Shown: in pieces, positions 11,237 to 47,583 of the stretch | Numbering within the stretch: the first letter of the stretch is position 1 | Layout: every line of letters begins with the position of its first letter | Source of the DNA: Acidobacteriota bacterium | Lineage (GTDB): Bacteria > Acidobacteriota > UBA6911 > RPQK01 > JAJDTT01 | DNA: 64,000 bases | Assembly: GCA_965217775.1 (NCBI GenBank) | Contig: CBDCJH010000002.1 | Span: 1,312,001 to 1,376,000, forward strand | Direction: 5' to 3' | Made by a program: the position numbers and the translations under genes | The notes under the pieces: generated by a model | Database searches by the model: none | Seen by the model: only the letters and a program-made list of their open reading frames with translations | Told to the model about the DNA's origin: nothing

Positions 11237-11620
11237 TTGATCCTTGTCGATACGTCGTCTTGGATTCACATGCTGCGTCGAAACGGCGATCCAGCAGTTC
11301 GCGTCCGTGTCGAAGTAGCCCTGAGGACAGGCCAAGCGTGCTGGTGTCCGTTGGTCCAACTGGAACTCTGGAACGGCGCGAGGGGCCAGCAGGAACGGAA
11401 GGCTCTGCGGGAAATCGCCCGGGTGCTACCAGAACTTCGCATTGACGATGAGGTCTGGCGGATTGCGCATGATTTGGCGCGTCGAGCCAGAGCTCATGGC
11501 ATTACCGCGTCTGCAACGGACTTGATCGTGGCTGCCTGCGCCCGCCGTTACGGTGTTTTTCTCGAAACCGCCGATTCAGATTTCGAACATTTGGCGTCCG
11601 TAATCGGACCAATCGGATAG
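11237..11620 (+). CDS. vapC: VapC PIN-domain toxin
   Basis: ILVDTSSWI, EL, TDLIVAA and TADSDF carry the PIN acidic residues. Confidence 0.88.
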   Translation: MILVDTSSWIHMLRRNGDPAVRVRVEVALRTGQACWCPLVQLELWNGARGQQERKALREIARVLPELRIDDEVWRIAHDLARRARAHGITASATDLIVAACARRYGVFLETADSDFEHLASVIGPIG

Positions 11621-35400: not shown

Positions 35401-35530
35401 GGCGGCACGCGCCTTCGTTGAGTTGTCTCGGACCAACCAGGTCCTGGTCTTTACCTGCCACCCGACGGTGGTTGAATTATTCCAAGAGGCAGCGGGAGAG
35501 ATGAGCCCGGATTTGATCCGCGTTGGGTAG
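32408..35530 (+). CDS. YhaN-like AAA/SMC-type ATPase with internal TM hairpin
   Basis: YGPNEAGKST Walker A, long coiled coils, LSRGTREQL signature, VVDEVLVNFD, FTCH. GTGA overlap with the exonuclease. Confidence 0.9.
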   Translation: MRIQGFRIEGFGRFADHAVGPFDHPVTLIYGPNEAGKSTYLAFIRTILFGFPRRLGNQHYPPLSGGRHGGRIDLVSGDGSRYSVHRIQGRGAGPVTTTGAGGENLDERVLAQLLGHHSRDVFESVFAFTLEELHSGDLLGKSSVNRQIYSAGMGVTKLPAVMRTLQSEREALFRKGGSVNRIARTARKLGEIEARLRGIATNAAAYGRLTTRLQEVEARLVALNQIRRHGQNRLDRRRQLQDAWEDWNDLITIERQLSELPAIDDFPADGIRRLEALEERLRGARREYDSARTSVEEVKSKTTVRIEHDAIVDRTDEVRNLGRLRGAFDQSVRDLPKRQAELENYQNDLAKTLRELGPDWDQQRLDHFDLSLAVREEISRHEERLRQAREGLGRSESDLEQAQARLNEASHSVERAKEELESAPRPKYDAAGIRRRRNQIRMARVQLDRYAREAQRAADLKRQLDGVYQTGSPKAASDMKWLPVLCAAFGIALAVAGTMAGGTVLAMGMVTSLFLIGLAVYLHVRNRSDSGMAESPIAGPIRRSLEAARRRLVTIRSELDETAAEMGLRGINESVLTGAEETLDAESSRLVQWERLREVLDRGKGSLQRRAARKDEKAENVERALRRVDAAKQAWEAWLGERSLRTTFNPEAMGELRGQVELGRNQFSEVRNWRQRITAIQEDIDSYTAMVASLASSFEVEFDPGDGQAVAAAADTLIDLHGRVAQRVRDRSNAADDLRMAERELQERYQQLSDAEAEMAGLLQSGGATDAEHFRRRAERFRQRTELGERKREVGGRLQRISGPGEHLQSLEERLENTDLQSILACINEVRDELAEADEEIQTLSTERGGIRNDLDRLIGEEESSGWRMERHLLLEQIRGHAREWVIRTLVHRLLETAQNKFERERQPGVVRHAERFFGRITGGRYPQVYAPLGERTIIVTDGTGRRKSPQELSRGTREQLFLSLRFGLIRELGQRTEPLPVVVDEVLVNFDPDRALRAARAFVELSRTNQVLVFTCHPTVVELFQEAAGEMSPDLIRVG

Positions 35531-35607
35531 ATTCCGGTCAAGTTTCCACGAAGGTCGGACAGGACCAGGTTCGGCAATCAGTGGAGGGTACTGGAACAGC
35601 GGTGAAC

Positions 35608-35691
35608 GTAGGGGCACCCCTTGTGGGTGCCCGCTGTCGCTCCTTGCTGATCGGCCCGGGCAGGGCGACCACACACAAGGGTCGCCCCTAC
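35608..35691. repeat. Inverted REP doublet (REPIN-like)
   Basis: GTAGGGGCACCCCTTGTGGGTGCCC (35608-35632) faces GGGCGACCACACACAAGGGTCGCCCCTAC (35663-35691). Confidence 0.78.
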
Positions 35692-35701
35692 GCTCATTCC
35701 T

Positions 35702-35920
35702 GTGAAAACCGTGAAAACCGGGTTGACATTGGGTGTCCGCAACTTGTTCAATGTTGTTCCCGACGAGAACACAGTTGGACAGTCGCGGAGTGGGCGACTC
35801 GAAGATTCCGCTGGCAATTTGATCATCGACTCGCCGGGCATCTTCGTCTTCTCGCGCCGGTCTGCCCCGTTCGGCTTCAACGGTGGATTTCTCTACGCTC
35901 GCTACAGTGTTCGGTGGTAA
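35702..35920 (+). pseudogene. C-terminal remnant of a TonB-dependent receptor
   Basis: LTLGVRNLFNVVPD...APFGFNGGFLYARYSVRW is a typical TBDR C-terminus. No N-terminal part is present upstream. Confidence 0.7.
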
Positions 35921-35958
35921 CCAATTGCAAATGTGAACGTGGAACGGAGTTGAAGCAG

Positions 35959-36792
35959 ATGAAGAAGAAGATCGCATCTCTCGCCATTTTGGTGTTCGGA
36001 TTTCAGGGCATGGCAGCAGCCCAGGATTCCATCTATTCGGCATCCGGAGATCTCGTCTTCGCCAGCAAGTACATCTGGCGCGGGCTGCGAGCGACCAATG
36101 ACTGGAGCCTGCAGCCGGCGATGACCCTGGGAATCGGCGGCTTCTCCGCCAATGTCTGGGGGACGATGGACCTGACCGCCGTAAACCCGGGCGATGCCTT
36201 GCCGATCCAGCCTGGTGACGGGCTCAAGGGGAAGTTTTCCGAAGTCAATTACGTCTTTTCCTACGATCACTCTTTTGAAGGCGCCACGGTCAGCGCGGGC
36301 ACCATTATCTATGTCTTTCCCGAACGGTCGGCTTCGCTGCCTGGGACCACCGAGATCTACGGAGGAGTGAGCCTGGATTCGGTGCCTCTGGCTCCTTCGT
36401 TTACTCTCCATGTGGATATGGACGAGAGCCAAGCCGGCGGTGGAAGCGCCGGACTGTACTTTCTTATCGCAGCCGGACACAGTTTCCCGCTCCAGCACGA
36501 CGTCCTGACCAGTTTCGACTTGTCCGCAACCGTGTCGCTCGTAAACGCCGGGTACACTGATTTCTTTTATAGTGTGAGTTCCGGCGGTTTCCATGACGCC
36601 AATATCACGGCGACCCTTCCCTTCACCATCAACGACAACTGGTCCGCCGGGGTTTTCGTCACCTATAGCGGCCTCATCGGCCAAGCGATTCGAGACAGCC
36701 AGTTGCAGGACCCGCGGCAACCAGCGAAACCTAGCGGCGCCTATCTGGCAGATACGCTCTGGGGTGGTTTCAGCCTGAGCGTCTCGTTCTAG
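35959..36792 (+). CDS. Putative outer-membrane beta-barrel (TorF/MipA-like)
   Basis: Signal peptide MKKKIASLAIL, SKYIWRG, SLQP, EVNY, TEIYGGVS; ends GFSLSVSF. Confidence 0.7.
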   Translation: MKKKIASLAILVFGFQGMAAAQDSIYSASGDLVFASKYIWRGLRATNDWSLQPAMTLGIGGFSANVWGTMDLTAVNPGDALPIQPGDGLKGKFSEVNYVFSYDHSFEGATVSAGTIIYVFPERSASLPGTTEIYGGVSLDSVPLAPSFTLHVDMDESQAGGGSAGLYFLIAAGHSFPLQHDVLTSFDLSATVSLVNAGYTDFFYSVSSGGFHDANITATLPFTINDNWSAGVFVTYSGLIGQAIRDSQLQDPRQPAKPSGAYLADTLWGGFSLSVSF

Positions 36793-36822
36793 TCGTTGGG
36801 CGCTGAACCGAATCGTATTGCG

Positions 36823-37010
36823 ATGCAGTTACCAAGGGTTGTGTTGCGCGCCGTCAGCGGCGTTCTGGCGGCCGTGGTTCTCATCGGCATGGTGGCCGGG
36901 GCCGGGGCGCAGCCACGCCAGTCCCGCTGGTACGTGGGCGGAGGGGCCGGGGTGAACTGGCCGTCCAGGATGGAGCAGGAGGGCCACAATCTGGATACCA
37001 CCTGCTATCC
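36823..37010 (+). pseudogene. 5' half of a small outer-membrane beta-barrel gene, interrupted by the integrated element
   Basis: Signal peptide, then WYVGGGAGVNW...TTCYP. The frame runs into element DNA and stops at 37050, but continues in frame after attR. Confidence 0.8.
36999..37010 (+). repeat. attL core (CACCTGCTATCC)
   Basis: Exact 12-bp direct repeat of 46731-46742; 14/15 identical when extended (CGA versus GGA). Confidence 0.85.
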
Positions 37011-37116
37011 CGATCAGCCGCTCCTGATAATTGACCATTATGGGGGATAGCTTGGGGATTATCAAATTCTCCCCGGCCGCGGTGGATGGGGAACATGTCG
37101 AAGGGAGGACTAGAAG

Positions 37117-37542
37117 ATGAGTTGCAAAGGACGATGTTTGGTCAGAACGAAGAACCCACGAACGGCGGAGGAGTTGATAAATTTGAGGCTCGATGGCCTT
37201 TGGGTCCGAGAGTTTCTGTGGCCGATGCCAAAGGACGGCGGCAGCGCCCACATCTGCCGGTCCTGTTACAAAAAGGCAGAGGTCATGCCGCAAGACGACG
37301 ACGCCAGACGGTTACGCGAGAGAAGGCGCGCCGCAGGCGACGGTCGGCACTCTACTGGTGACAACCGGATCATCGACTTGGTATTGGGGATCTCCATGCG
37401 ACTGGAGATCTGCCGTATACCGGGTTTCGACTTCATTTACTTCTGTGAGTGGTGCGAAACTCAAGAACTTGGTCTGATCGCTGACACAGAGGCTCTGGAG
37501 CGGCTGCCGGAAGATTGCCACTTCAAGAGCATCTCCGACTGA
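37117..37542 (+). CDS. Element hypothetical protein with CxxC pairs
   Basis: GGAGGA RBS; CKGRC, CRSC and CEWC motifs. Confidence 0.55.
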   Translation: MSCKGRCLVRTKNPRTAEELINLRLDGLWVREFLWPMPKDGGSAHICRSCYKKAEVMPQDDDARRLRERRRAAGDGRHSTGDNRIIDLVLGISMRLEICRIPGFDFIYFCEWCETQELGLIADTEALERLPEDCHFKSISD

Positions 37543-38191
37543 CGCCTGCGGTGAACTAGCCCCTGTCACCGGAAAATGGTAAGGTGAGGGCCGAGTCGGA
37601 CAGGGTGCTACCACACTGGGACTTTCAAGCTAACCCCTTGCACCCTGTCCGTGTTCCATCTTCTGTCAGGGGTTCCAGATAGAATTCCCGGCAGCTTGAA
37701 AGTTCTATCTCGGGACATTTCCAACATCCTGGATAACAGCCTCAAGCCGCGTTCGTTTGCTGTGGTCCATGCGCGGGCCGGACGCTCGATCAAGGCGATC
37801 TCCAACAGCGGGATCGACGGCGTGACACGGGACCTTCAAATCACGCGCGGCAACCCCCACGCAACGGGTAAACAGGCTCGTGCCTGCCTCGAAGCTGGGT
37901 CCAGGGCCGGAGGGGTGGTGGGTACAGTGGCCACCATGGAAATGTGCTGGACTACCGCAAGCAGGCAACTCCTGAACTAGCGGGCTCAAGATCTAACAGG
38001 GAAGTCAGACGGGGAACGGTTCACGCCTCGCGCGTAGGATCTGAAGACCCCTCTGATTTTTCCGATCCGCCGTAGGCGGGGGAGGAGAAAGCAGACGGGG
38101 TTCCCTAATTGCAGTACCCAATCTTTCCCCCGGTATGGTCCTGGGGTTAGTCAAGGGAGAAGGTGTGGTCAGAGGAAAAGGAGATTGAGTC

Positions 38192-38398
38192 ATGGCTGAA
38201 ACACTGTCCACTGAATTGGAAACCCTCCTCAGGCAAGAACGCATGATTCGTGAGTTCGTGCTGTCCCTTGATGGCAGTGACTCATTCACCCGTGAGATTC
38301 GTGATTTGGCGGAGGGACACCGCGTGGAGCAACTGAAGTCAATCCGGGACAATATCGAGAAGCAGGCCCAACCTGTGGTGAAGGGTCCATGCAAATAG
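38192..38398 (+). CDS. Element hypothetical protein (68 aa, helical)
   Basis: AGGAGA upstream of ATG; co-oriented with the element operon. Confidence 0.5.
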   Translation: MAETLSTELETLLRQERMIREFVLSLDGSDSFTREIRDLAEGHRVEQLKSIRDNIEKQAQPVVKGPCK

Positions 38399-38426
38399 GC
38401 ACCAGCCTAATTGCAGGGTGTAGAAC

Positions 38427-38750
38427 ATGACGTGGCGAAAGGAGTCCGACATTGTGGACAACTGCCGACGCTGTGACGCCACCCTAAGCGATGGCTGCCT
38501 CCCTTCTCCTTGCGGCAAGCTGGAAGGCGGCTCTCAGGATTCCGGGGCCACATTGTGCCCCACGTGCCGAATGCTCTACTTCAGGGAGGCGGGAAAGCGA
38601 TCCGGCAGGATACGGCGACGGTGGCGGGAGGATCGGGATATCGGGATCGCCCACTTCAAGAAGGAGGGGATGACGAATAAACGGATTGCCGAGATTTCCG
38701 AGTGTTCCGAGCGCACTGTCTACTACGCCCTCAAGCGTCTTAACATCTGA
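38427..38750 (+). CDS. Zn-ribbon plus C-terminal HTH regulator
   Basis: CRRC...CPTC, then GMTNKRIAEISECSERTVYYALKR helix-turn-helix. Confidence 0.7.
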   Translation: MTWRKESDIVDNCRRCDATLSDGCLPSPCGKLEGGSQDSGATLCPTCRMLYFREAGKRSGRIRRRWREDRDIGIAHFKKEGMTNKRIAEISECSERTVYYALKRLNI

Positions 38751-39236
38751 TCCTGCTACAATGAACCCCGCTTGAATCCAGAGCAACCAGGTCTCCATAA
38801 CATGACCTTGGAGGCCAACCAGGGCCGGGTCCATAGCTATGCTGCGACCAGGCTCGGCCCTGATCCTTCCCTCCTTCCTTCCCATCCTAAAAAGAAGTAC
38901 CGTCACCGGTCTTTTTACTAACTTCCAAGTGTGTTGATCTTTGATCGAGGGATTCTGCACACTCGAAATCGTGAGGACTTCAATCGTCAAGCGATGGGGA
39001 CCACGGACCACGACGCCTTCCTACTGGGGGTCTGTGTTGAGACCGGAATGGATCGCGTCCATGCGAAGGCACCGTCTCCACGAGCAGACCCGGCGGATTG
39101 CCTTGCCCTTCCTGGACCGAAACCAACCCGGTGCGCCTCGTAGTCTGATGTCCACGGAAGAGGCGTGGCTGCGGCTCAAGACTGCCGACCAGCTCATCCG
39201 CAAAGGCATCACCGAGTCCAGCAATGGAGAGGCCCG

Positions 39237-39623
39237 ATGAGCGTCCGGATCGGGATGGTCAATGAGAAGGAGGTCTTGTCCTCCATCGACCGGGTCATGC
39301 CCCGCGTTGAGACGGAGCTGACCACGGCCTTGGACGACGGCTTAGTATCAGCATTGCATCACTCTGAGCGCCGTGTGCCGGAGCGCACTGGTGATCTCAA
39401 GAGCACGGGCCGAGTGACCAAAACAGAGAAGGTAGGTGGCACTATCCTACGTGCTGAGATCGGCTATGGCGGCAAGGCGGCATCGGGACGGCAGGTTAAC
39501 TACGCCATCGAGCAGCATGAGAGCGTTCACAGTTCCGGAAGGAAGTACCTGCAAACCGCTATGGAACGTGCGGATCTTCCCGGTCGACTCGACAAGGCGA
39601 TGGCGAAGGCGCTGGGACTATGA
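39237..39623 (+). CDS. HK97-gp10-like neck/tail-completion protein
   Basis: VPERTGDLKS, IGYG, NYAIEQHE and KYLQTAM pattern. Confidence 0.65.
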   Translation: MSVRIGMVNEKEVLSSIDRVMPRVETELTTALDDGLVSALHHSERRVPERTGDLKSTGRVTKTEKVGGTILRAEIGYGGKAASGRQVNYAIEQHESVHSSGRKYLQTAMERADLPGRLDKAMAKALGL

Positions 39624-39744
39624 CGGCGGCACCGGGGCACATAGTCACCTTGGGGACCCCTGTCCGGCTCGATCCGGCCCAGCCGGGCGGCGGGGTGGGG
39701 GTCAGCATCGAGTGCATGGAAAACGTTTTTACGGAGAGCCTGAA

Positions 39745-41412
39745 GTGAGCCTCCAGCGATACGAAAAGCGTCCATGTGGGTATTCGAGGTGTTCCAACCG
39801 CTTCGACGTCGTTGTGGGCCGTCGTGGGCGTCGTCGTGAGTATTGTCAGGCATCGTGCCGGGTGGCGGCCTGGAACCTGCGTAAACGGACCCATGAACCG
39901 CAGCCTGTGAAGGTGAAGGTTCCCAAGGACCCGTTCAGTGCATTGTGTTCGTGGGCGAAGGACACACTACGAATCCCTCCTGGACATCCCTTGTCCGGGC
40001 AGCCCATGTCCATTCCCAGGTTCGCCAAGCCCTTCCTCAAAGATGCGCTGGACCCTTCCAAATCCGAGTGCGCTCTGGTTTTGGGAAGGAAGAACGCAAA
40101 ATCTGCCATCTGCGCTGTGATTCTCTTGGGGTTTCTTGTGGGTCCCGTTCGGGCACATGGCTGGCGAGCGGGAATCTGTTCCATCTCCAAGGCGAAATCC
40201 AGGGAGTTGCGGGACCAGGTGGAGGACATCGCCAAGGCATCGGGACTGTCCGAAGACATCCTCTTCCGGAGATCCCCTTATCCGGGGTCCATCGAATCGA
40301 GCACCGGCAAGGTGGAGATCCTTTCAAGTGAAGGTGGTGGAGGACATTCTTCTTCCTTCGACCTTTCCATCATCGACGAAACGGGATTGCTCAAGGAGAA
40401 GGACCGGGGACTGGTCAACAGCATGAGGTCGGCGACTTCGGCGAAGGACGGCAAGGTTCTTCATCTGAGCATCTATGGAGACTCTCCTTTCATTCCGGAG
40501 TTGATCGGGATGAGGCACGAGCCCTTCATCAGCGTTCACGTTCATCAGGCGGACGAGGGTGCCCGTCTCGATGACCCGAAGCAGTGGAAGAAAGCGAATC
40601 CGGGGTTGGGGACCATCAAATCCATCTCCTACATGGAGAAGGCGGCAAGGAGGGCCATGCTCACCCCAAGCGACGAGGCCCACTTCCTGGCTCAGGACAT
40701 GAACAGGCCGGGGTCTCCGGATCGGATGATGCTTTGTTCGCCGTCGGACTGGGAACGGTGTCGGGTTCCAGTTCTTCCCCCGCGTTCGGGTCCCTGCCGC
40801 ATGGGGGTGGACCTTGGGGGCAGTTCTGCCATGACCTGCGCGGTTCTGTGGTTTCCCGACACGGGCCGCATGGAGACCTATGGAGCCCTGCCGGGGGTGC
40901 CGTCGATCAAGCACCGGCAACGGAAAGACCAATCCCGCTACGATCTCATGTGCCGATCCGGGGAGTTGCAGGTCTATGCAGGACATCGAACCGTTCCGGT
41001 GGACAAGTTCCTCCGTTACATGGCGGATGTCGTAAAGGGGGAGAATCTGGTCTCCATCGGTTCAGACCGATACCGGGATGCTGAAACGAGGCAGTTCGTC
41101 GACCAATCCGGACTCCCGTGGTTGAGGAAGTGGCTGTGGAGAGGCACGGGAGCATCGGCCACGGCGGACGGCAGCCATGACATTCGATCTTTCCAGCGTG
41201 CGGTCCTGAACCAGGAGATCAAGCACGACGGCGGCCTGATGATGTCATCGGCCATCAGTAACTCCAGCTTGAGGTTCCGGAACAACAACCCGGCCCTGGA
41301 GCGTTCTGGCCCTGGTCGAGTCGATGCCCTGCAAGCGGGAGTCATTGCCGTGGGGACCAGCACGGTCAAGGTGGCGAGATCCAGTTGGCGATACCGGGGG
41401 CGGGTTGGATGA
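39745..41412 (+). CDS. terL: Terminase large subunit with N-terminal Cys-finger extension
   Basis: Walker A variant LGRKNAKS, Walker B SIIDE, WKKANPGL, nuclease GVDLGG, SDRYR, VDALQA. N-terminal CGYSRC...YCQASC. Confidence 0.85.
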   Translation: MSLQRYEKRPCGYSRCSNRFDVVVGRRGRRREYCQASCRVAAWNLRKRTHEPQPVKVKVPKDPFSALCSWAKDTLRIPPGHPLSGQPMSIPRFAKPFLKDALDPSKSECALVLGRKNAKSAICAVILLGFLVGPVRAHGWRAGICSISKAKSRELRDQVEDIAKASGLSEDILFRRSPYPGSIESSTGKVEILSSEGGGGHSSSFDLSIIDETGLLKEKDRGLVNSMRSATSAKDGKVLHLSIYGDSPFIPELIGMRHEPFISVHVHQADEGARLDDPKQWKKANPGLGTIKSISYMEKAARRAMLTPSDEAHFLAQDMNRPGSPDRMMLCSPSDWERCRVPVLPPRSGPCRMGVDLGGSSAMTCAVLWFPDTGRMETYGALPGVPSIKHRQRKDQSRYDLMCRSGELQVYAGHRTVPVDKFLRYMADVVKGENLVSIGSDRYRDAETRQFVDQSGLPWLRKWLWRGTGASATADGSHDIRSFQRAVLNQEIKHDGGLMMSSAISNSSLRFRNNNPALERSGPGRVDALQAGVIAVGTSTVKVARSSWRYRGRVG

Positions 41413-41711
41413 AGCGGTTGCACTCTCGAGAAATGGGGCGCCTGAGACGGCGGCTTTACAAGGAGCAGCAGAACAGGTGCGCGAAGTGTGGGCTGTTGTT
41501 CTTGTTGAGGGAGATGGAGGTCCACCACGTTCAGCCACTCGCCGAGGGCGGAACCCACGACGACGATAACGTCCAGCTTTGGTGCCTGGATGACCACCAT
41601 GAGGCCACTCGATATCAGAACACCGATCCCGCCATTCGTGACCAGAAGAGAGACTGGCGGGTGTTTCTACGAACGGAAGAACAAAGAATCTTTAGGAGGG
41701 TTCGAGCATGA
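41409..41711 (+). CDS. HNH endonuclease (terminase-associated type)
   Basis: CAKC, EVHHVQPLAEGG, NVQLWCLDDH. ATGA overlaps at both ends. Confidence 0.85.
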   Translation: MKRLHSREMGRLRRRLYKEQQNRCAKCGLLFLLREMEVHHVQPLAEGGTHDDDNVQLWCLDDHHEATRYQNTDPAIRDQKRDWRVFLRTEEQRIFRRVRA

Positions 41712-42979
41712 CCACGAAACAGAAACTGGAACTCCGGCGGAGTGAAGTCAGATCCAGGCTGGCCGAGATCGCCGGTCTGGACGAGTTGACGGACGAGATC
41801 CGCACCGAGTCCAAGGCACTGGAAACCGAGTTTGCCGACTTGGAGACGAGATACAGGGCGGCTCTGCTTTCCGAGCAGGACAACGGCAAGCTGGACGAGA
41901 CCGATACCAAGGGCCGGAAGCTCCGGAGCTTGGTCAAGAGGGCATCCCTTGTGAGCTATCTCTCGGAGAGCGTGCGCCAGAACGAGGTCCGGTCCGGATC
42001 TGCGGAGGCGGAGCTCAGGTCCGAGTTGTTGGGTAAGAACGCCCAGCCCGGACAGGTCCCCCTGGCGGTGCTCGCTCCGGAGGTCGTGAAGGAACGGAAA
42101 CGGGAGACTCGCGCCACCGATACGGCTACGGATGTGGGGGCCATCGGAATTCCGAACCGGCAAAACCAGATCATCCGGAGGGTGTTCTCGCAGAGCGCCA
42201 CTTCGTTCTTGGGAATCAGAATGCCCAGCGTCGCAATCGGCGAAACGTCGTTCCCGTACCTGAGCGCCGGGGTCAGTCCTGCGATGAAGGCCAAGGGGGC
42301 GCGTGCGGATGCGGAGGCGGCCACCTTCTCGGCCGAGTCCGTTGGGCCAACCCGTCTCAGTGCCCGATACCTGTTGAGGGTCGAGGACCTGCACCGTCTG
42401 GCCGGTATGGAAAGTGCGCTCAGGGCTGATTTGCGCGGCTCCCTGAGTGAAAGCCTTGATGCCCAGACCCTTGTTGGCGACGGAGTCGCCCCGAACGTGA
42501 CCGGGTTGTTGTCTGAACTGCCTGCGGCTGCGGCAGCGGGTGCGGCGGAGTTCTCGTGGCAGGAGGCGGTGCAAGTGATCGCCGATCAGGTCGACGGAAA
42601 ATATGCCGCCGATCCGAGCATGGTCCGGATGCTCTGTGCGAGTGATTTGTACTCGAAAATGGCCATCCGATTGGTGGCGGCCTCCTCAAGCGGCTCAAGT
42701 GTGAGCGCGGCATCGAGGTACATCCAGGAAATCAGCGGCGGACTGCGAGTCAGCGCGAACATGCCAGCCGCCGACTCCAACATCTCCACGGTGCTGTTAA
42801 GTCGGATGGGACACGCCGGCGCTTTTGCCCCGATCTGGGGAAATTCGTTCGAGCTCATTCGCGACCCGTATAGCCATTCGGCCACTGGCGAGGTGGCTCT
42901 GACGGCGATCATTTTGTGGGCATTCGTGGTGCCCCGTGAAGACGTTTTCGCACTGCGGAAGCTGAGAATCGCGGTCTGA
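41708..42979 (+). CDS. Major capsid protein, HK97 fold with N-terminal coiled-coil (delta-like) domain
   Basis: 423 aa; coiled-coil N-terminus; P..LSARY, LRADLRGSL, GDGVAPNVTGL, ELIRDPYS; located in the head module. Confidence 0.8.
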   Translation: MTTKQKLELRRSEVRSRLAEIAGLDELTDEIRTESKALETEFADLETRYRAALLSEQDNGKLDETDTKGRKLRSLVKRASLVSYLSESVRQNEVRSGSAEAELRSELLGKNAQPGQVPLAVLAPEVVKERKRETRATDTATDVGAIGIPNRQNQIIRRVFSQSATSFLGIRMPSVAIGETSFPYLSAGVSPAMKAKGARADAEAATFSAESVGPTRLSARYLLRVEDLHRLAGMESALRADLRGSLSESLDAQTLVGDGVAPNVTGLLSELPAAAAAGAAEFSWQEAVQVIADQVDGKYAADPSMVRMLCASDLYSKMAIRLVAASSSGSSVSAASRYIQEISGGLRVSANMPAADSNISTVLLSRMGHAGAFAPIWGNSFELIRDPYSHSATGEVALTAIILWAFVVPREDVFALRKLRIAV

Positions 42980-42982
42980 GTC

Positions 42983-43405
42983 ATGCCGATCGGCATCTTG
43001 AGAGGTCCAGCCGGAGCCGGTAAGTCCCAGTGGTTCGACGAGAACGCCGAACCGGGCGACTTGTGGCTTGACATCACGGCAATCTGGGCCGCCGTCCGGG
43101 GTCTCGAAAGGGGTCCCGATGGTCGCTATCCGGTGCGCTTGGACGACGACCAGGGCCTACGAATGGCTGCCTATCTGAAGGCCACCGGGATCGCCTTTGC
43201 CGAGCGTGAGGGCCTGGACGGATGGGCTACGACCAGTTCATCGGCACCGGAGGCCGTGGAGCGGATTCGGGAGCAGGGGGCAACGGGTCGGGCGCAAACC
43301 ATAGATCCTGGTGAAGCCGTCGTTCGGCGCAGGCTTGCCGATCCCGACACCGGCGAGTTGGACCCTCAATGTGATTCCGCGCTGTTGCGTTGGTACAGCG
43401 TATGA
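42983..43405 (+). CDS. Small P-loop protein in the head module
   Basis: ILRGPAGAGKS Walker A, 140 aa; ATGA-coupled to the protease. Confidence 0.65.
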   Translation: MPIGILRGPAGAGKSQWFDENAEPGDLWLDITAIWAAVRGLERGPDGRYPVRLDDDQGLRMAAYLKATGIAFAEREGLDGWATTSSSAPEAVERIREQGATGRAQTIDPGEAVVRRRLADPDTGELDPQCDSALLRWYSV

Positions 43406-43851
43406 AGATTGTTACGAACGTTGAAATCCGGGAGTCGTCCAAGGGAGTCAAGCGGCTCCACGCCGTCCTCATCCAAGAGGGCCGAGCCTCCACTGGAGGC
43501 CGTTCGGAGGTGATCATACCCGGAGCAATCACATGGCCCGATGCCGGGATTTCTTTAAGGGCCGTGCATCGGGGTCCCGCCATAGGAGTGGCGCATCCGG
43601 CGAGGCATCCGAACGGGGAAATCAGGATTGCCACGTTAGCGACCGGTGCCGTGATCCAGGCTGTCGAGTCAGGCAAGACCGGCATGAGCATCGAGTTCAC
43701 GGCGCTTCGCGAGAAAACCACCAAAGGCGGAATCCGTGAGGTACAGGCTGCTTATGTGGATGCTGCCGCACTCGTGAGCAATCCCGAATATGAGCAGGGC
43801 CGGGCCGAGATCCGATCCCGGAAGCGGAGGTCACAGCTATGGCGACTCTGA
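43402..43851 (+). CDS. HK97-type prohead protease
   Basis: EVIIPGA, His in AVHRG, GMSIEF (catalytic Ser), ALVSNPEY...EIRS. Confidence 0.75.
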   Translation: MKIVTNVEIRESSKGVKRLHAVLIQEGRASTGGRSEVIIPGAITWPDAGISLRAVHRGPAIGVAHPARHPNGEIRIATLATGAVIQAVESGKTGMSIEFTALREKTTKGGIREVQAAYVDAAALVSNPEYEQGRAEIRSRKRRSQLWRL

Positions 43852-44231
43852 GCCCCTGGCCCGAAAGTGTGGGAGACCGAAACGCGGCTCTCCGTGAACT
43901 GGAACGCCATCTTAAGTATCCCGAGATCGACATCGACATCGGGGAGGAACGGGAGCGGCTGGAACTGGTCGGGGAGGCGGCTTCGGCCCTGGTCGAGCGG
44001 TACAGTCCTGGAGCTCCACAACGTATTCGGGATTTGGCCGTCGTCAGGACGTGTCAATACCTGCTTGCCCGATCCGGTGCCAGCGTGTCCAAGGTGACGG
44101 AGGAGTTGGGGGACTGGAACCACACCTTGGAATTCATGCCCAGTATGGTTTCGGCGCTCCGGGCGTCCGGATCAATGTCCCTATTGAGTCCCTTCAAGAT
44201 CCGCAGGGCGCGAAAGGTGACGGCGGCATGA
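43839..44231 (+). CDS. Head-tail connector-like protein (gp6/gp15-like)
   Basis: AASALVERY, AVVRTCQYL and SLLSPFKIRR match the connector pattern and size. Confidence 0.65.
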   Translation: MATLSPWPESVGDRNAALRELERHLKYPEIDIDIGEERERLELVGEAASALVERYSPGAPQRIRDLAVVRTCQYLLARSGASVSKVTEELGDWNHTLEFMPSMVSALRASGSMSLLSPFKIRRARKVTAA

Positions 44232-45304
44232 AGTGGCAGGGACGGGAGGTCGACTTCGGTTTACGTGAGACTCGATCCAGCGGGTACACGGACCGGTTGA
44301 CCCAGCTCCTGGTGAGTCAGGCATCCACCGTGACCGAGACCGATCCCTCCCGGACTGGCGCTCTGGAGGTCTGCGCCGGGATTTGGGGCCGCGCCTTCGC
44401 ATCCGTGAAAGTGGAGCCGCAGACGGCGGCGCAGGTGCTCTCTCCCAACGTCCTGAACTTGATCGGCCGCCAACTGATCCGACAGGGTGAAGTCCTGTTC
44501 CGGGTCCAGGTGGTCAATGGTCAGCGCGTCCTGACCCCTTCGAGCGCCTGGGATGTCTCGGGAGGCGCGGACCCGTCCACATGGAGATTCACATGCTCTT
44601 TCAGCGGACCCGACTCCGAACAGGAGGCTACGCTGGAGTGGGACGAGGTGGTTCTGCTGACCTGGGCCACCGAGCCTGGAGCGCTCTACCGGGGCCTGGG
44701 ACCGCTTGAGGTGGGAGACTTGACCGGATCCCTGTGTGGGTCCTTGGAGAAGTCCCTCAGCAGCGAAATGGCGACGCCCAACGGATACTTGCTGACGGTC
44801 CCACAAGTGGACGAAGTGCCGGATGACGAGACCGATCCACTCGAAGATATGAGGGCCGATTTGAAGGGGCTCGACGGCGGTCTTTCATTGGTCGAAACGA
44901 CTCAAGGCGGGGGCGGCGAAGGCCGGGTAGCGGCTCCGGCGCGGGATTGGGTTCCGTCCCGGCTCGGTCCGTCTCCTCCCAAGGCGTTGTGCGACCTGCG
45001 CGAGGATGTCCACAGGACGGTCTTGTCCGCCTGCGGGATCTCCCCGGCGATGGTCGGCGGGCGTTCGGACGGAACTGCAAGGCGAGAAGCCTACCGAACA
45101 TTTGCGCATCTGTCCTTGACCCCAATGGGCCGGATGGTTGCAGCGGAACTGGCGGACAAGCTGGAGATCCCTGGCCTTCGATTCAACTGGTCGAACCTGA
45201 TGGCGGGAGACATCACAGGCAAGGCGAGGGCGTTCAGGAGCTTGGTTCAGGGCGGCATGGACGTAGCGAAAGCCGCCAGCCTCTCGGGGCTGATGACGGA
45301 TTGA
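44228..45304 (+). CDS. Phage portal protein
   Basis: ALEVCAGIWGRAFAS, QLIRQGE, YRGLGPL, VLSACGISPAMV, ELADKL; 358 aa. Confidence 0.78.
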   Translation: MKWQGREVDFGLRETRSSGYTDRLTQLLVSQASTVTETDPSRTGALEVCAGIWGRAFASVKVEPQTAAQVLSPNVLNLIGRQLIRQGEVLFRVQVVNGQRVLTPSSAWDVSGGADPSTWRFTCSFSGPDSEQEATLEWDEVVLLTWATEPGALYRGLGPLEVGDLTGSLCGSLEKSLSSEMATPNGYLLTVPQVDEVPDDETDPLEDMRADLKGLDGGLSLVETTQGGGGEGRVAAPARDWVPSRLGPSPPKALCDLREDVHRTVLSACGISPAMVGGRSDGTARREAYRTFAHLSLTPMGRMVAAELADKLEIPGLRFNWSNLMAGDITGKARAFRSLVQGGMDVAKAASLSGLMTD

Positions 45305-45656
45305 CGATAAACCCGCAGACCAGGACATGACGCTGGCAGCGGGCCGTCACTTGAAGATACACAGGTGATGGAAAACTCCCCGGTCGTGGGAACGGCGGGG
45401 AGTGAGTCAGGTTGTCCATGATGAGTTCGACCTGACAACAGTGGGGCGGGTGCTTCGAACACGCCCGCCCCATCTTCCTCCCCCGCACGTAAGGGACCCT
45501 GCCCCATGGTTGGCCGGGCGTAGACTACCGGTGTCGGAGTGCACCCTACGTCCGCCACACGATTCCCTGGCCATCGGCGGCCCGTGCTGTCCTGGAGGTG
45601 TCAAAGCCATACCTGAGGACCCTCGAAACGCTCAGGCGCTCCTCTTGACTGGGCTT

Positions 45657-46640
45657 TCAGTCATCTTCCATGAACCGCGCGACGGCGTTCTTCTTGGCCC
45701 GTTCTCCCGAGACGTAATGGACGACCATCGCCGGACTTTTCCAGCCGCCGATCTCGGCAACGTCTTGCAAGCTAGCTCCCCGCCGCGTCAGTTCTTGAGC
45801 ACATCCTCTCCGCAAGGAATGGCCTCGGACTCGTTTCAACTCCACCCCGGCCTGCCGGGCGCGGACCCGGATAATGCGGCGCACGGTGTCGGTATGCAGA
45901 TCTTTGTCCAGAACGTTCGTGTTGGTGCAAGGACGGAAGAGCGGCCCGGTCTGGATTCGGGCTCTCTTGATCCACGCTCGCAGCAGCCGGGACGCGCGTT
46001 TCGTCAGGTAGCCATTACGTCCCGATCCCTGCGGGTCCGTCTTGCTCCGGCGGACGACGATCAGCGCCGATCCGTCCGCTTGAAAGGACACGTCTTCGAT
46101 TTCCAGGGCGCAGAGCTCACCGATCCGCAGGCAGCCGTCGTACATGACGCTGAGCAAGGCGGCGTCCCGGGTCCCCCAGAGCGGCCGGAACGTGGACTCG
46201 ATGATGGCCGACCCCACCATCTCCCGGACTTCATCGGCGCTCAGTCCCCGAGCCAGCTTGGTGCCCCGGTTCCAACCTTCTTTGGAGACGATACCGAGGA
46301 CTTCCTTGGTCTGCTCTCCAACCGGATCCAGCTCGTCTTTGGCCCTGGACCGCCATCTCGCGGCGTTGACGATCCCCCGGACGCTGGCCGGGGCGAGGCT
46401 GTCCGCGTCGAAGCGATGCTCGCAATACTCGGCCAGCAGGTCGTCGGTCAGATCACGACCTGCCAACCACTCGTCCAGTTTTCTCCAGACGTTTCGATAG
46501 GTTCGGCGGGAATTGGCGCTCAGCTTGCGGAGCTTGCGCCGGTAGCGGATGTCAGCCCGTGTCTGCATGACTGGTGTCCTTTCGGGTTCGGGTTCCCGTA
46601 CCGCGCGGCAGGCCGGGGTGAATTGAAGGATTCGTGCCAT
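45657..46640 (-). CDS. int: Tyrosine recombinase/integrase, Cre-like
   Basis: RDAALL...LRIGEL (R), RSKTD (K), HSLRRG (HxxR), GGWKSPAMVVHY (W, Y). GAGGAGG RBS; adjacent to attR. Confidence 0.92.
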   Translation of the reverse strand: MARILQFTPACRAVREPEPERTPVMQTRADIRYRRKLRKLSANSRRTYRNVWRKLDEWLAGRDLTDDLLAEYCEHRFDADSLAPASVRGIVNAARWRSRAKDELDPVGEQTKEVLGIVSKEGWNRGTKLARGLSADEVREMVGSAIIESTFRPLWGTRDAALLSVMYDGCLRIGELCALEIEDVSFQADGSALIVVRRSKTDPQGSGRNGYLTKRASRLLRAWIKRARIQTGPLFRPCTNTNVLDKDLHTDTVRRIIRVRARQAGVELKRVRGHSLRRGCAQELTRRGASLQDVAEIGGWKSPAMVVHYVSGERAKKNAVARFMEDD

Positions 46641-46730
46641 GTGTAACCTCCTCGGTTGCCCTCTACCTATCTCTTTCACCAAAACGAAAACGATCGAGGG
46701 CATTATTTTTTGAGGAGCGGTCTCGGAGAG

Positions 46731-46742
46731 CACCTGCTATCC
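46731..46742 (+). repeat. attR core (CACCTGCTATCC)
   Basis: Direct repeat of 36999-37010, about 90 bp upstream of the integrase start. Confidence 0.85.
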
Positions 46743-47583
46743 GGACGAGGACTGCGATCGTCTACCTGGCGGCGGACCGCCAGGCTACCGCTGGCGCTAT
46801 GATGTCGAAGGGAAGAACGGAACCGCGTACGAGTTTTCCGTCGGCCGCAGGTTCAGCCATCTCCGAGTGGAATTTTCGGTCACCCGGCAGAAGAACGACC
46901 TCGAATCGGACTTTTCCGGGATCAGCTACGTGGACGGATCCCCCATCCTCTCCATCGAAACCGACCTTCAGGCGGAAGGAAGTTCCTCGGTCGGGGATCT
47001 GATCGCCCGCACGCTGTCGTTGAACCTCTACTATGACTTTCCGATGGCGTCGAATCGCTTTGCGCCTTATCAGCCCGTGGCAAAAGTCATCACGGCATTC
47101 GACCGTCCCTGCATCCCGGCGGACGGCGTTGCGATTCGGGCACATACTCCCGGTATGCACCCGAATCGCGCCTTGTCCGGCGGGCGCAGGAACGGTCTCG
47201 GTGCTCGCGGGACTTTCACCACGGACTGTTATGTCGGCGCAGGACTGGGGGCTTCCTTTGTCGAAGTGACCGATCTGTTTTATGAGAGCTCGTACAGCGG
47301 TCCCGGCGGGCCCTACGATCCTCCCTTGGAGTTTTACTCCAGTCGGACCAACGAGAACCTGTCCGATACGATTCTGGCGAAACACCTGTACGTCGGCGTC
47401 GACTTCGGATTGAGTGAAAGGACGCTGTTGGGCGTGAAGTTGTCCCACCTGCGGATGGGGGACTTCGCGGCCACGGGGGGCTACGACTTCCATCCGATCC
47501 CGGGATTGACCAGCGAGACCCGGTTCAGCGGCATGAACCACTGGTTGCTGGGGCTCACCGTCAAGTTGTTGCTCGGCCGCTGA
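46743..47583 (+). pseudogene. 3' half of the interrupted outer-membrane beta-barrel gene (OmpW/opacity-like small barrel)
   Basis: DEDCDRLP...YEFSVGRRFSHLRVEFS, LSLNLYYDF, PY/YVGAGLG, GVKLSHLR, WLLGLTVKL. In frame with 36823 across att. Confidence 0.8.
47071..47228. mobile_element. MITE family A, copy 2, inserted in frame in the OMP gene
   Basis: Ends CAGCCCGTGGCAAAAGTC and GACTTTCACCACGGACTG; TTAT at 47067-47070 and 47229-47232; 158+4 = 162 bp = 54 codons. Confidence 0.85.

Follow-up and report, generated by a model that had tools for sequence, protein, structure and literature searches.

A tail-less 9.7-kb integrated element of Acidobacteriota, probably a new lineage of capsid-forming phage satellite

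How does an integrated element live when its recognisable genes appear to be those for a complete phage head and for DNA packaging, and no others? The question is raised by a 64,000-nucleotide stretch of an Acidobacteriota genome (GenBank assembly GCA_965217775.1, contig CBDCJH010000002.1, positions 1,312,001 to 1,376,000; hereafter the window, from genome G000), in which an integrated unit of 9,732 bp occupies positions 36999-46742. An original prediction, made from the sequence of the window, described this unit as a complete, streamlined satellite rather than a decayed prophage, in a host that was probably one of the Acidobacteriota; this host assignment is supported. It is nearly certain that the element is real, that it integrated site-specifically and that it belongs to a recurrent family of tail-less elements with head and packaging genes. 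We further consider it probable that it represents a new lineage of capsid-forming phage satellite, which would work like the phage-inducible chromosomal islands that form capsids (cf-PICIs) while being unrelated to them in sequence, gene order and host. A life as a tail-stealing satellite is probable to the same degree.

The element is bounded by two exact 12-bp direct repeats, CACCTGCTATCC, one at 36999..37010 (attL core) and the other at 46731..46742 (attR core). Such a repeat is not significant by itself because 59 direct-repeat families are listed in 13 kb. It is validated as an attachment (att) site since its placement coincides with empty-site junctions. Indeed, the orthologous target gene is uninterrupted and carries the repeat once in two genomes of the same genus, G006 and G005. 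Mapped to the G006 locus (L075), the left flank as far as 37013 and the right flank beginning at 46725 fall on overlapping positions, 1494-1514, and the two flanks overlap likewise at the empty site of the G005 locus (L068). In the four-way alignment the empty site consists of the sequence left of attL, the core and the sequence right of attR. These empty sites led to the rejection of a chance repeat, and they bear out the intact 12-bp att repeats that had been proposed.

The interrupted gene encodes an outer-membrane protein (OMP). Its 5' part (36796..37010, plus strand, within an open reading frame (ORF) of 36796..37050) shares 88% DNA identity with L075 as far as the core, while the 3' part (46731..47583, plus strand), in a shared frame with the 5' part, is 90-91% identical outside an insert. 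ORFs 36796..37050 and 46867..47583 keep one reading frame across the core, and the insertion thus splits the gene in frame. The intact G006 ortholog is a beta-barrel OMP of 291 aa (PF13505, E = 8.9e-11). It is at the 12-bp core inside this gene that the Cre-like tyrosine integrase inserted the element. The element has a GC content of 60.5%, against 62.5% in the remainder of the window, and a tRNA scan of the 64 kb detects no tRNA gene.

Population data are consistent with a mobile element. They come from Logan contigs of four metagenome runs in two studies. In all four runs the contig of the left flank stops at 37010 and that of the right flank begins at 46731, while contigs of the element begin at 36981 or 36988 and end at 46760. 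Flank contigs have depths of 45-89 and element contigs of 3-16, the element thus reaching ~0.05-0.3 of its identical flanks, although these depths are per-contig means and may include close strains. The contig breaks at the core and the low depth of the element indicate that occupied and empty sites with identical flanks coexist, the element being the minority allele.

The gene order within the element is the one originally proposed: a gp10-like gene, TerL (large terminase), HNH, capsid, P-loop protein, protease, a gene in the connector position, portal and a convergent integrase. The predicted translational coupling is also evident, six ATGA overlaps and one GTGA overlap joining g4 through g13. 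HNH, TerL, portal, capsid and protease are identified at the level of general Pfam and PHROG families. Genes g1 to g13 lie on the plus strand and the integrase, g14, on the minus strand.

TerL (g7, 39745..41412) is a protein of 555 aa that matches phrog_9 (1.4e-45) and PF20441 (1.3e-9). It starts at the GTG at 39745 and not at the ORF start at 39436. It is ~25% identical to the TerL proteins of HK97 and HK022, and the residues invariant with HK97 gp2 include R115 and K119 (Walker A), D211 and E212 (Walker B) and D356, D441 and D527 (nuclease). A Cys4/basic N-terminal extension of ~60 aa is present in TerL of the element and lacking in HK97 gp2. The next gene (g8, 41409..41711) encodes an HNH endonuclease of 100 aa (PF01844, 2.1e-10; phrog_144, 1.5e-10).

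The major capsid protein (g9, 41708..42979) has 423 aa, with a helical N-terminal domain of ~120 aa, and is assigned to the HK97 fold by PF05065 (3.3e-6) and TIGR01554 (6.7e-9). Its AlphaFold2 (AF2) model (pLDDT 71.9) has 206 PDB matches at E<=0.001, among them encapsulins, gene transfer agent (GTA), HK97 and other phage capsids. Profiles of capsid and portal searched against PDB sequences return nothing at E<=0.01. An encapsulin nanocompartment was considered and rejected: portal and TerL are coupled in the same operon, and the encapsulin matches reflect a shared fold only. The portal protein (g13, 44228..45304; 358 aa; PF04860, 3.1e-12) is the only PF04860 match in G000. It is 77% identical to its counterpart at locus L015 and 62% to that at L016.

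The protease assignment comes from the family of g11 (43402..43851, 149 aa), the window protein itself having no family match of its own. The family comprises 31 ORFs in the loci described below. PF04586 (Peptidase_S78) is matched by 16 of its 20 aligned members, the best at 1.1e-22, and His56 and Ser96 are invariant in the alignment. In addition, the g11 profile matches PDB chain 9sz9 in its N-terminal part (3e-6); this chain has 516 aa and was deposited as a major capsid protein. By this route the proposed prohead serine protease is confirmed as a member of the S78 family. The neck protein was likewise recognised through a homolog. The 128-aa g5 (39237..39623) has only a weak match of its own (phrog_31989, 6e-4), and its homolog L015:7095-7520 matches PF04883 (HK97-gp10_like) at 7.9e-8. 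Together with the alignment to an HK97 gp10-family protein, in which P48, T51 and L54 are invariant, this match upholds the gp10-like label.

The remaining two genes of the head operon are less well characterised. The P-loop protein g10 (42983..43405, 140 aa) reaches AAA_33 at 0.02 and phrog_4581 at 1e-7; its homolog in L016 reaches AAA_33 at 1.1e-4, and homologs occur in 7 other loci only. Its nearest Atlas clusters are AAA_33, mostly viral (score 0.96), and it resembles the small AAA_33 proteins common in phages. The gene g12 (43839..44231, 130 aa) belongs to a family of 24 ORFs that always lie between protease and portal, and its AF2 model (pLDDT 84.5) is all-helical. It has no Pfam, PHROG or NCBIfam match, its fold matches nothing in the PDB at E<=0.001 and its family profile finds nothing among PDB sequences. 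The best match in BFVD, 'Head-to-tail adaptor [Gordonia phage Volt]', is not significant (E 0.45, TM 0.48). A complex prediction for portal and g12 gave a score of 0.00, which speaks neither for nor against binding. The earlier label of connector thus lacks both a family match and a significant fold match, and g12 is called here a putative adaptor only, since no significant PDB, BFVD or profile match was obtained.

The integrase (g14, 45657..46640, minus strand, convergent with the head operon; 327 aa) matches PF00589 at 1.2e-22. Its best solved relatives are Cre (3.2e-13) and then Xer (7e-8), in line with the Cre-like convergent integrase that had been proposed. Its ATG at 46640 is preceded by GGAGG.

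Which functions are missing? No tail, lysis, primase or TerS (small terminase) family is matched by the 14 ORFs of the element in Pfam, PHROGs and NCBIfam (g6 was scanned in NCBIfam only), nor do the same scans detect a helicase or replicase family or a holin. The absence of tail, lysis, primase/helicase and TerS genes claimed at the outset is therefore upheld at the level of these families. There is no AlpA or MerR family match either; the only protein with a helix-turn-helix is g3, ~7 kb from the integrase. TerS was sought with PHROGs in the ORFs upstream of TerL in 6 related loci, and none was detected. Two candidates were discarded: an ORF of L032 is the N-terminal part of TerL, and phrog_4581 ('terminase small subunit') matches the HNH and P-loop proteins only by virtue of HNH and P-loop parts of its own. 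A scan for promoters and terminators did not rise above shuffled sequence (promoter-like sites number 1, where shuffles average 2.2; terminator-like sites number 7, where they average 7.7).

The element is not alone in its genus. The capsid protein was searched in 61 related genomes, 9 in the genus of the window and 52 outside it. It was found at 12 places in 5 of the 61, all five in the genus (7 places in G006, 2 in G001 and 1 each in G003, G004 and G000); the query returned nothing in the 52 genomes outside. An integrase homolog lies near the capsid gene in all 11 of the other in-genus 20-kb loci. The full set of TerL, HNH, capsid, P-loop protein, protease, g12 and portal is present in four of the 11 (L014, L015, L016 and L024), and L022 and L023 have a shorter set, from which g12 and the P-loop protein are absent. 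These elements span ~8-10 kb wherever the integrase and the first element gene allow a guess at both ends. The closest relatives might have been full-length prophages, a possibility that the original prediction had raised against itself; the other loci of the genus are instead elements of ~8-10 kb with an integrase and the same core order. Seven other in-genus elements were searched for direct repeats. One of them, L023, has a plausible flanking pair of 14 bp, with copies 9,748 bp apart; in the remainder the flanking repeats are of 11 bp or none. Decayed copies exist as well, the capsid genes of L017 and L021 carrying stop codons and TerL being reversed in L020.

Other mobile DNA is associated with these loci. 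A pair of ORFs of 470 aa and 63 aa is common to three G006 loci (L014 13449-15059, L021 12490-14100 and L022 14391-16001), inside or beside copies of the element, and is probably an insertion sequence. In L018 (G004) a DDE transposase (PF01609, 2.5e-18) lies between the integrase and the capsid gene.

Beyond the genus, a portal-alignment scan with one genome per species gave 41 loci, four of which repeat loci of G006 or G001. The order TerL, capsid, portal is kept in 22 of the 41, circular permutation being allowed. The other 19 are mostly C-terminal fragments of the portal, plus the short contigs L034, L043 and L045; the portal of L048 is frameshifted. The family is thus a recurrent one with a fixed core order, TerL-HNH-capsid-(P-loop)-protease-(adaptor-like)-portal. 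The loci come from metagenome-assembled genomes (MAGs) labelled Acidobacteriota, Bryobacterales, Ca. Multivorans, Dehalococcoidia, Longimicrobiales, Gemmatimonadetes, Rhodospirillales, Gammaproteobacteria, Pseudomonadales, Thermodesulfobacteriota and others, the bin assignment of short stand-alone contigs being unreliable. Integrated copies on long contigs are those of G006 (L024), Dehalococcoidia (L036) and Longimicrobiales (L037 and L039). In the portal tree these four form one clade with L035, on a 35.8-kb Rhodospirillales contig (SH-aLRT 99), and the window groups with L015 and L016 (SH-aLRT 99). Relatives are scattered over phyla and do not follow host relationships.

The size of the family is apparent from a search with the capsid profile among 1.84 billion cluster representatives, which returned 4,698 at E<=1e-3, 2,914 at E<=1e-10 and 1,539 at E<=1e-30. 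A single-sequence, word-based capsid search gave 41 proteins, all unnamed. One of ten capsid representatives looked up has a name, 'phage major capsid protein', from a 9,284-bp contig of Ca. Poribacteria. Among 50,697 phage records, capsid (E<=1e-5) and portal (E<=1e-3) have no tblastn match. TerL matches 327 of these records, all below 60% identity and the best at ~25-26%; the best matches are HK97-like phages and unannotated 12.9-kb 'Ralstonia phage' records. Plasmids yielded one weak capsid match, to a chromid (25% identity). No description of the family was found in the literature, where the supplementary element lists of the cf-PICI and SatelliteFinder papers may hold relatives, and no paper was found that links cf-PICIs with Acidobacteriota.

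Many loci (L052-L065, L048, L062) retain only the last 40-160 residues of the portal gene. In L033 such a fragment (11370-11594) lies directly downstream of a complete element, and one Dehalococcoidia chromosome has three separate fragments. This suggests repeated integration and replacement at the same sites, with the att-proximal end left behind.

Some members of the family occur as free circular or tandem units of ~10 kb. The contig L040 has 9,849 bp with a 55-bp terminal overlap, which makes a unit of 9,794 bp, and a coverage of 1463 according to its record title. L041 is a perfect tandem with a period of 10,074 bp on a 27-kb contig, and L050 is a tandem with a period of 10,323 bp. In the IMG/VR contig L077 (9,606 bp) the capsid gene is split over the contig ends. 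Contigs of 9-11 kb hold many capsid homologs. The original prediction allowed that no other element of roughly 10 kb might share the architecture; circular and tandem units of 9.8-10.3 kb do. Replication genes are present in some free forms, namely L051 (Toprim and AAA_25, 1.6e-23), L050 (DUF5906) and L041 (prim-pol, phrog_5852).

Purifying selection is seen in the head genes of the window element. For the portal, the comparison with L015 gives dN 0.199 and dS 0.78 (dN/dS ~0.25). Values of pN/pS are 0.36-0.51 for portal, TerL, P-loop protein and protease and for the capsid compared with L014, and 0.63-0.76 for the capsid compared with L015 (0.69), g12 (0.63), g5 and g4, while g2 reaches 0.95; it must be noted that several dS values are saturated. 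Relaxed selection on the head genes, which the original prediction named as a ground for doubt, is not what the portal ratio and the retained Walker A, Walker B and nuclease residues of TerL indicate. The intact coupled genes, the selection and the recurrence of the set agree with its description of a complete, streamlined element rather than a decayed prophage; the word 'satellite' keeps its status of a probable reading.

Which known system does the element resemble? cf-PICIs, with EcCIEDL933 as prototype, encode their own capsids, are released as tail-less particles and acquire tails from various phages, according to the reports (10.1101/2022.09.08.507074, PMC10085698, 10.1101/2025.02.11.637232). 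As described there, they are, like the element, integrated units of ~10-15 kb with a tyrosine integrase, capsid, maturation protease, portal, TerL and HNH, and neither tail nor holin genes. The same reports attribute to them head-tail joining proteins, for which the candidates in the element are the gp10-like protein (via its homolog) and the putative adaptor g12, as well as an HNH-dependent HK97-type packaging logic and a spread over unrelated hosts, both of which the element family would share. Of the 11 core components used by SatelliteFinder, as given in PMC10085698, the element has the integrase at one end, HNH, TerL, portal, capsid and head protease. The statement in the original prediction that cf-PICIs normally carry a primase and TerS agrees with the definition in PMC10085698. 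By comparison, no TerS, AlpA-type regulator or primase-replicase was found in the element, its order TerL-HNH-capsid-...-portal differs from the three cf-PICI orders, and its hosts are Acidobacteriota and other environmental phyla, against Proteobacteria and Firmicutes for cf-PICIs. Further differences are the Cre-like integrase, the relatives that are free circles with their own primase-helicase, the lack of any tblastn match of capsid and portal in the 50,697 phage records and the ~25% identity of TerL. We do not file the element as a cf-PICI because three core components (AlpA-type regulator, primase-replicase and TerS) are missing and because order, sequence and host range differ.

The Streptomyces satellites MulchRoom and MiniFlayer are a second point of comparison. 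As described in PMC10690885, they have genes of their own for terminase, portal, major capsid protein, head-to-tail adaptor and HNH; like the element they have no obvious replicase and no tail genes, and one has a tyrosine integrase. They differ in having TerS, a scaffolding protein, direct terminal repeats and 20-26 genes, and in being kin of Actinobacteria phages, in another host phylum than the element (PMC10690885).

With HK97 itself (NC_002167) the element shares a TerL that is ~25% identical with all catalytic columns kept, an HK97-fold capsid with an N-terminal helical domain, the S78 protease, the PF04860 portal and a gp10-family neck protein. The HK97 genome, of 39.7 kb, is however ordered TerS-TerL-portal-protease-capsid-Ad1-Hc1-gp10, with the tail genes after this block. 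In the element the gp10-like gene leads the row and the portal closes it; there is no TerS, no Hc1 and no tail gene, and the Cys4/basic N-terminus is an addition to its TerL. A likeness to Rhodobacter-type GTAs lies in the small HK97-fold capsid (GTA is among the top fold matches of g9) and the chromosomal head genes. GTAs, for their part, have tail genes and package host DNA; they are inherited vertically as a single copy and are not known to carry an integrase or att sites. The element, in contrast, is integrative, multi-copy, polymorphic and tail-less. A GTA was rejected on the grounds of the element's integrase and att sites, its 1-7 copies at varying loci in 5 of 9 genomes and the lack of detected tail genes.

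The cycle of a tail-stealing satellite might then run as follows. Upon induction, most likely by an infecting helper phage, the element would excise. The capsid protein, the S78 protease and the portal would build a small HK97-type prohead, and TerL with the HNH nuclease would cut the DNA of the element and package it in unit lengths. The role of TerS may be taken over by the Cys4/basic extension at the N-terminus of TerL or by one of the small proteins encoded upstream. The adaptor-like g12 and the gp10-like neck protein would close the portal and offer a docking site for the tail of another phage. The HK97 gp10 family sits between head-closure and tail-terminator genes, and neck proteins therefore imply a tail partner. 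The phage that donates the tail would also supply lysis and, probably, replication.

Several results weigh against this reading. In G000, which is 97.9% complete, PF10145 (tape measure), PF04984 (sheath), PF03354 (TerL_ATPase) and PF03237 (Terminase_6N) have no match, and the only PF04860 and PF05065 matches are the element's own portal and capsid. PF10145, PF04984 and PF03237 are matched in none of the 9 genomes of the genus, and the three PF20441 (TerL_nuclease) matches there all belong to these elements, although Pfam markers can miss divergent phages, as PF03354 misses the element's own TerL. No helper phage was identified. A resident helper is therefore not evident, and the element would have to draw either on a virulent helper or on the tails of phages that infect other hosts. 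The use of such foreign tails is reported for cf-PICIs (10.1101/2022.09.08.507074, PMC10085698, 10.1101/2025.02.11.637232), and the helpers of MulchRoom and MiniFlayer are described in PMC10690885 as virulent phages, not resident prophages. Since no TerS and no replication gene were found, packaging specificity and replication are unaccounted for. The modelled adaptor assignment of g12 is not significant. No attP-type contig break occurs in the four metagenome runs, whose Logan contigs drop rare forms.

Distant relatives add a further difficulty. They have ORFs of 628-1085 aa (L040 7688-9772, L038 5068-6954, L036 5814-7763, L044 5403-8612 and L045 3718-6975) that lie between protease or adaptor and portal, and in three of them a g12-like domain forms the N-terminus. 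These large ORFs have no Pfam match and one weak PHROG match, to 'minor tail protein' (E 0.0029); the Atlas model is poor (pTM 0.23). They are possibly a delivery or attachment device. They stand beside an adaptor-like domain or are fused with it, and some members of the family may therefore not be tail-less.

A bolder version of the satellite reading, which we put forward tentatively, assumes a lineage of minimal 'head-only' HK97-type replicons of ~10 kb that is vast, has not been described before and spans phyla. These would alternate between an integrated form without a replication gene and a free circular or concatemeric form. TerS would be replaced by the Cys4/basic extension of TerL, and the elements would cross phyla because their tail-less, DNA-filled heads could dock onto the tails of any available phage, in hosts without a tailed prophage of their own.

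It is unlikely that the element is instead an autonomous, very small dsDNA virus or virus-like transfer agent, tail-less or cryptically tailed, which would need no helper and rely on its small proteins for release and entry. The lack of any tail or other terminase marker in the 9 genomes of the genus would fit such a virus, as would the free circular and tandem forms of ~10 kb, some with their own primase-helicase genes (L051, L050, L041), and there are candidates for additional functions in g1, g2, g4, g6 and the large ORFs of the relatives, which have no assigned function. However, no lysis, entry or tail function was detected and the window element has no replication gene. Moreover, it keeps an HK97-gp10-like neck protein, part of the head-tail joining block in HK97, which makes little sense without a tail. 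To our knowledge, no portal-bearing HK97-type virus infects without a tail, which also counts against an autonomous virus.

Quite improbable is a defective remnant, that is, a larger prophage or satellite that has lost its tail, lysis and replication modules and is intact by chance or by recent arrival. Decay does occur in the family (L017, L021, L020, L048), 19 of the 41 portal loci lack the full TerL-capsid-portal set, g2 has a pN/pS of 0.95 and replication genes such as those of some free forms are missing from the window element. Against this stand head and packaging ORFs that are all intact and translationally coupled, the retention of catalytic residues, and purifying selection. There is no space or scar for a tail module, g12 and g13 overlapping by ATGA; the insertion is polymorphic with identical flanks, and an identical set of genes, without a tail, is encountered in several phyla and in free ~10-kb units.

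A host-domesticated capsid system, GTA-like or a nanocompartment, that serves the bacterium is very improbable: top fold matches do include encapsulins and the Rhodobacter GTA capsid (E ~1e-8) and no helper was found, but the element brings an integrase and att sites of its own, disrupts the host gene in which it lies, is a minority allele within the population, is restricted to 5 of the 9 genomes in the genus, where its 1-7 copies occupy differing positions, has relatives scattered over phyla against host relationships, and carries the portal and terminase that encapsulins lack.

If the element is indeed a capsid-forming satellite, what does it add? Such satellites are a recent discovery, described from Proteobacteria, Firmicutes and a few systems of Actinobacteria (10.1101/2022.09.08.507074, PMC10085698, 10.1101/2025.02.11.637232, PMC10690885). 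The capsid-forming strategy would now extend to Acidobacteriota and, through relatives in MAGs carrying their labels, to Chloroflexota (Dehalococcoidia), Gemmatimonadota, Thermodesulfobacteriota, Poribacteria and Proteobacteria. The capsid and portal of the element are head proteins without a detectable relative among the 50,697 deposited phage genomes. The 1,539 capsid cluster representatives at E<=1e-30 suggest that gene flow in environmental and host-associated communities may have in this family a major vehicle that has been overlooked. With its 9.7 kb, the element offers a compact set of genes for an HK97 head that bears a portal and packages DNA, which suits structural work on small capsids, and it lends itself to asking how packaging specificity works without TerS. 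Since the tailed-prophage markers that were searched are absent from the whole genus, it is a testable question whose tails, if any, these heads use.

The left part of the element holds four small ORFs which, like the 42-aa ORF at 39620-39748, are also part of it. The first, g1 (37117..37542), encodes a Cys-rich protein of 141 aa whose frame fits third-position GC; it has no family match below E 0.09 and no homolog in other loci. The second, g2 (37651..37980), is a doubtful gene of 109 aa without a family match. It is 40% identical in amino acids to its homolog in L015, yet its pN/pS is the 0.95 given above; it may be conserved non-coding DNA or be read in another frame. The third, g3 (38427..38750), encodes a putative regulator of 107 aa with a Cys-rich N-terminus and a C-terminal helix-turn-helix. 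Its match to PF13384 (HTH_23, 4.6e-6) passes the family cut-off, and PHROG helix-turn-helix families are reached at 6e-4. The fourth, g4 (38941..39240), of 99 aa, is conserved in L015 and has no family match. The 42-aa ORF, g6 (39620..39748), is coupled on both sides by ATGA/GTGA and has no NCBIfam match.

Elsewhere in G000, the sole other strong relative of the element integrase is at C2:4142956-4143813 (37% identity, E 1.7e-44), and the other element genes have no counterpart besides one weak HNH-like match (E 5.5e-5).

The upstream neighbour of the target gene (35581-36792) is a second outer-membrane gene, whose G006 ortholog (L075 415-1293) matches MipA (PF06629, 6.3e-7); the element therefore sits in a pair of neighbouring outer-membrane protein genes. 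The 3' part of the target gene bears an additional insert, a 162-bp repeat placed in frame at 47067-47228. With 254 blastn matches in G000, at a median identity of 94%, the repeat folds as a single long hairpin (-96.5 kcal/mol). The orthologs in G006 and G005 lack it, and in all four metagenome runs the main right-flank contig skips it. It looks like a palindromic element of the miniature inverted-repeat transposable element type. Finally, some metagenome contigs join 35629-35692 to 47066-47071, and depth is raised to 177-566 in the bin 35500-35926. The join and the raised depth near 35600-35700 may reflect another copy or relative of a repeat, unseen by blastn at E<=1e-10.

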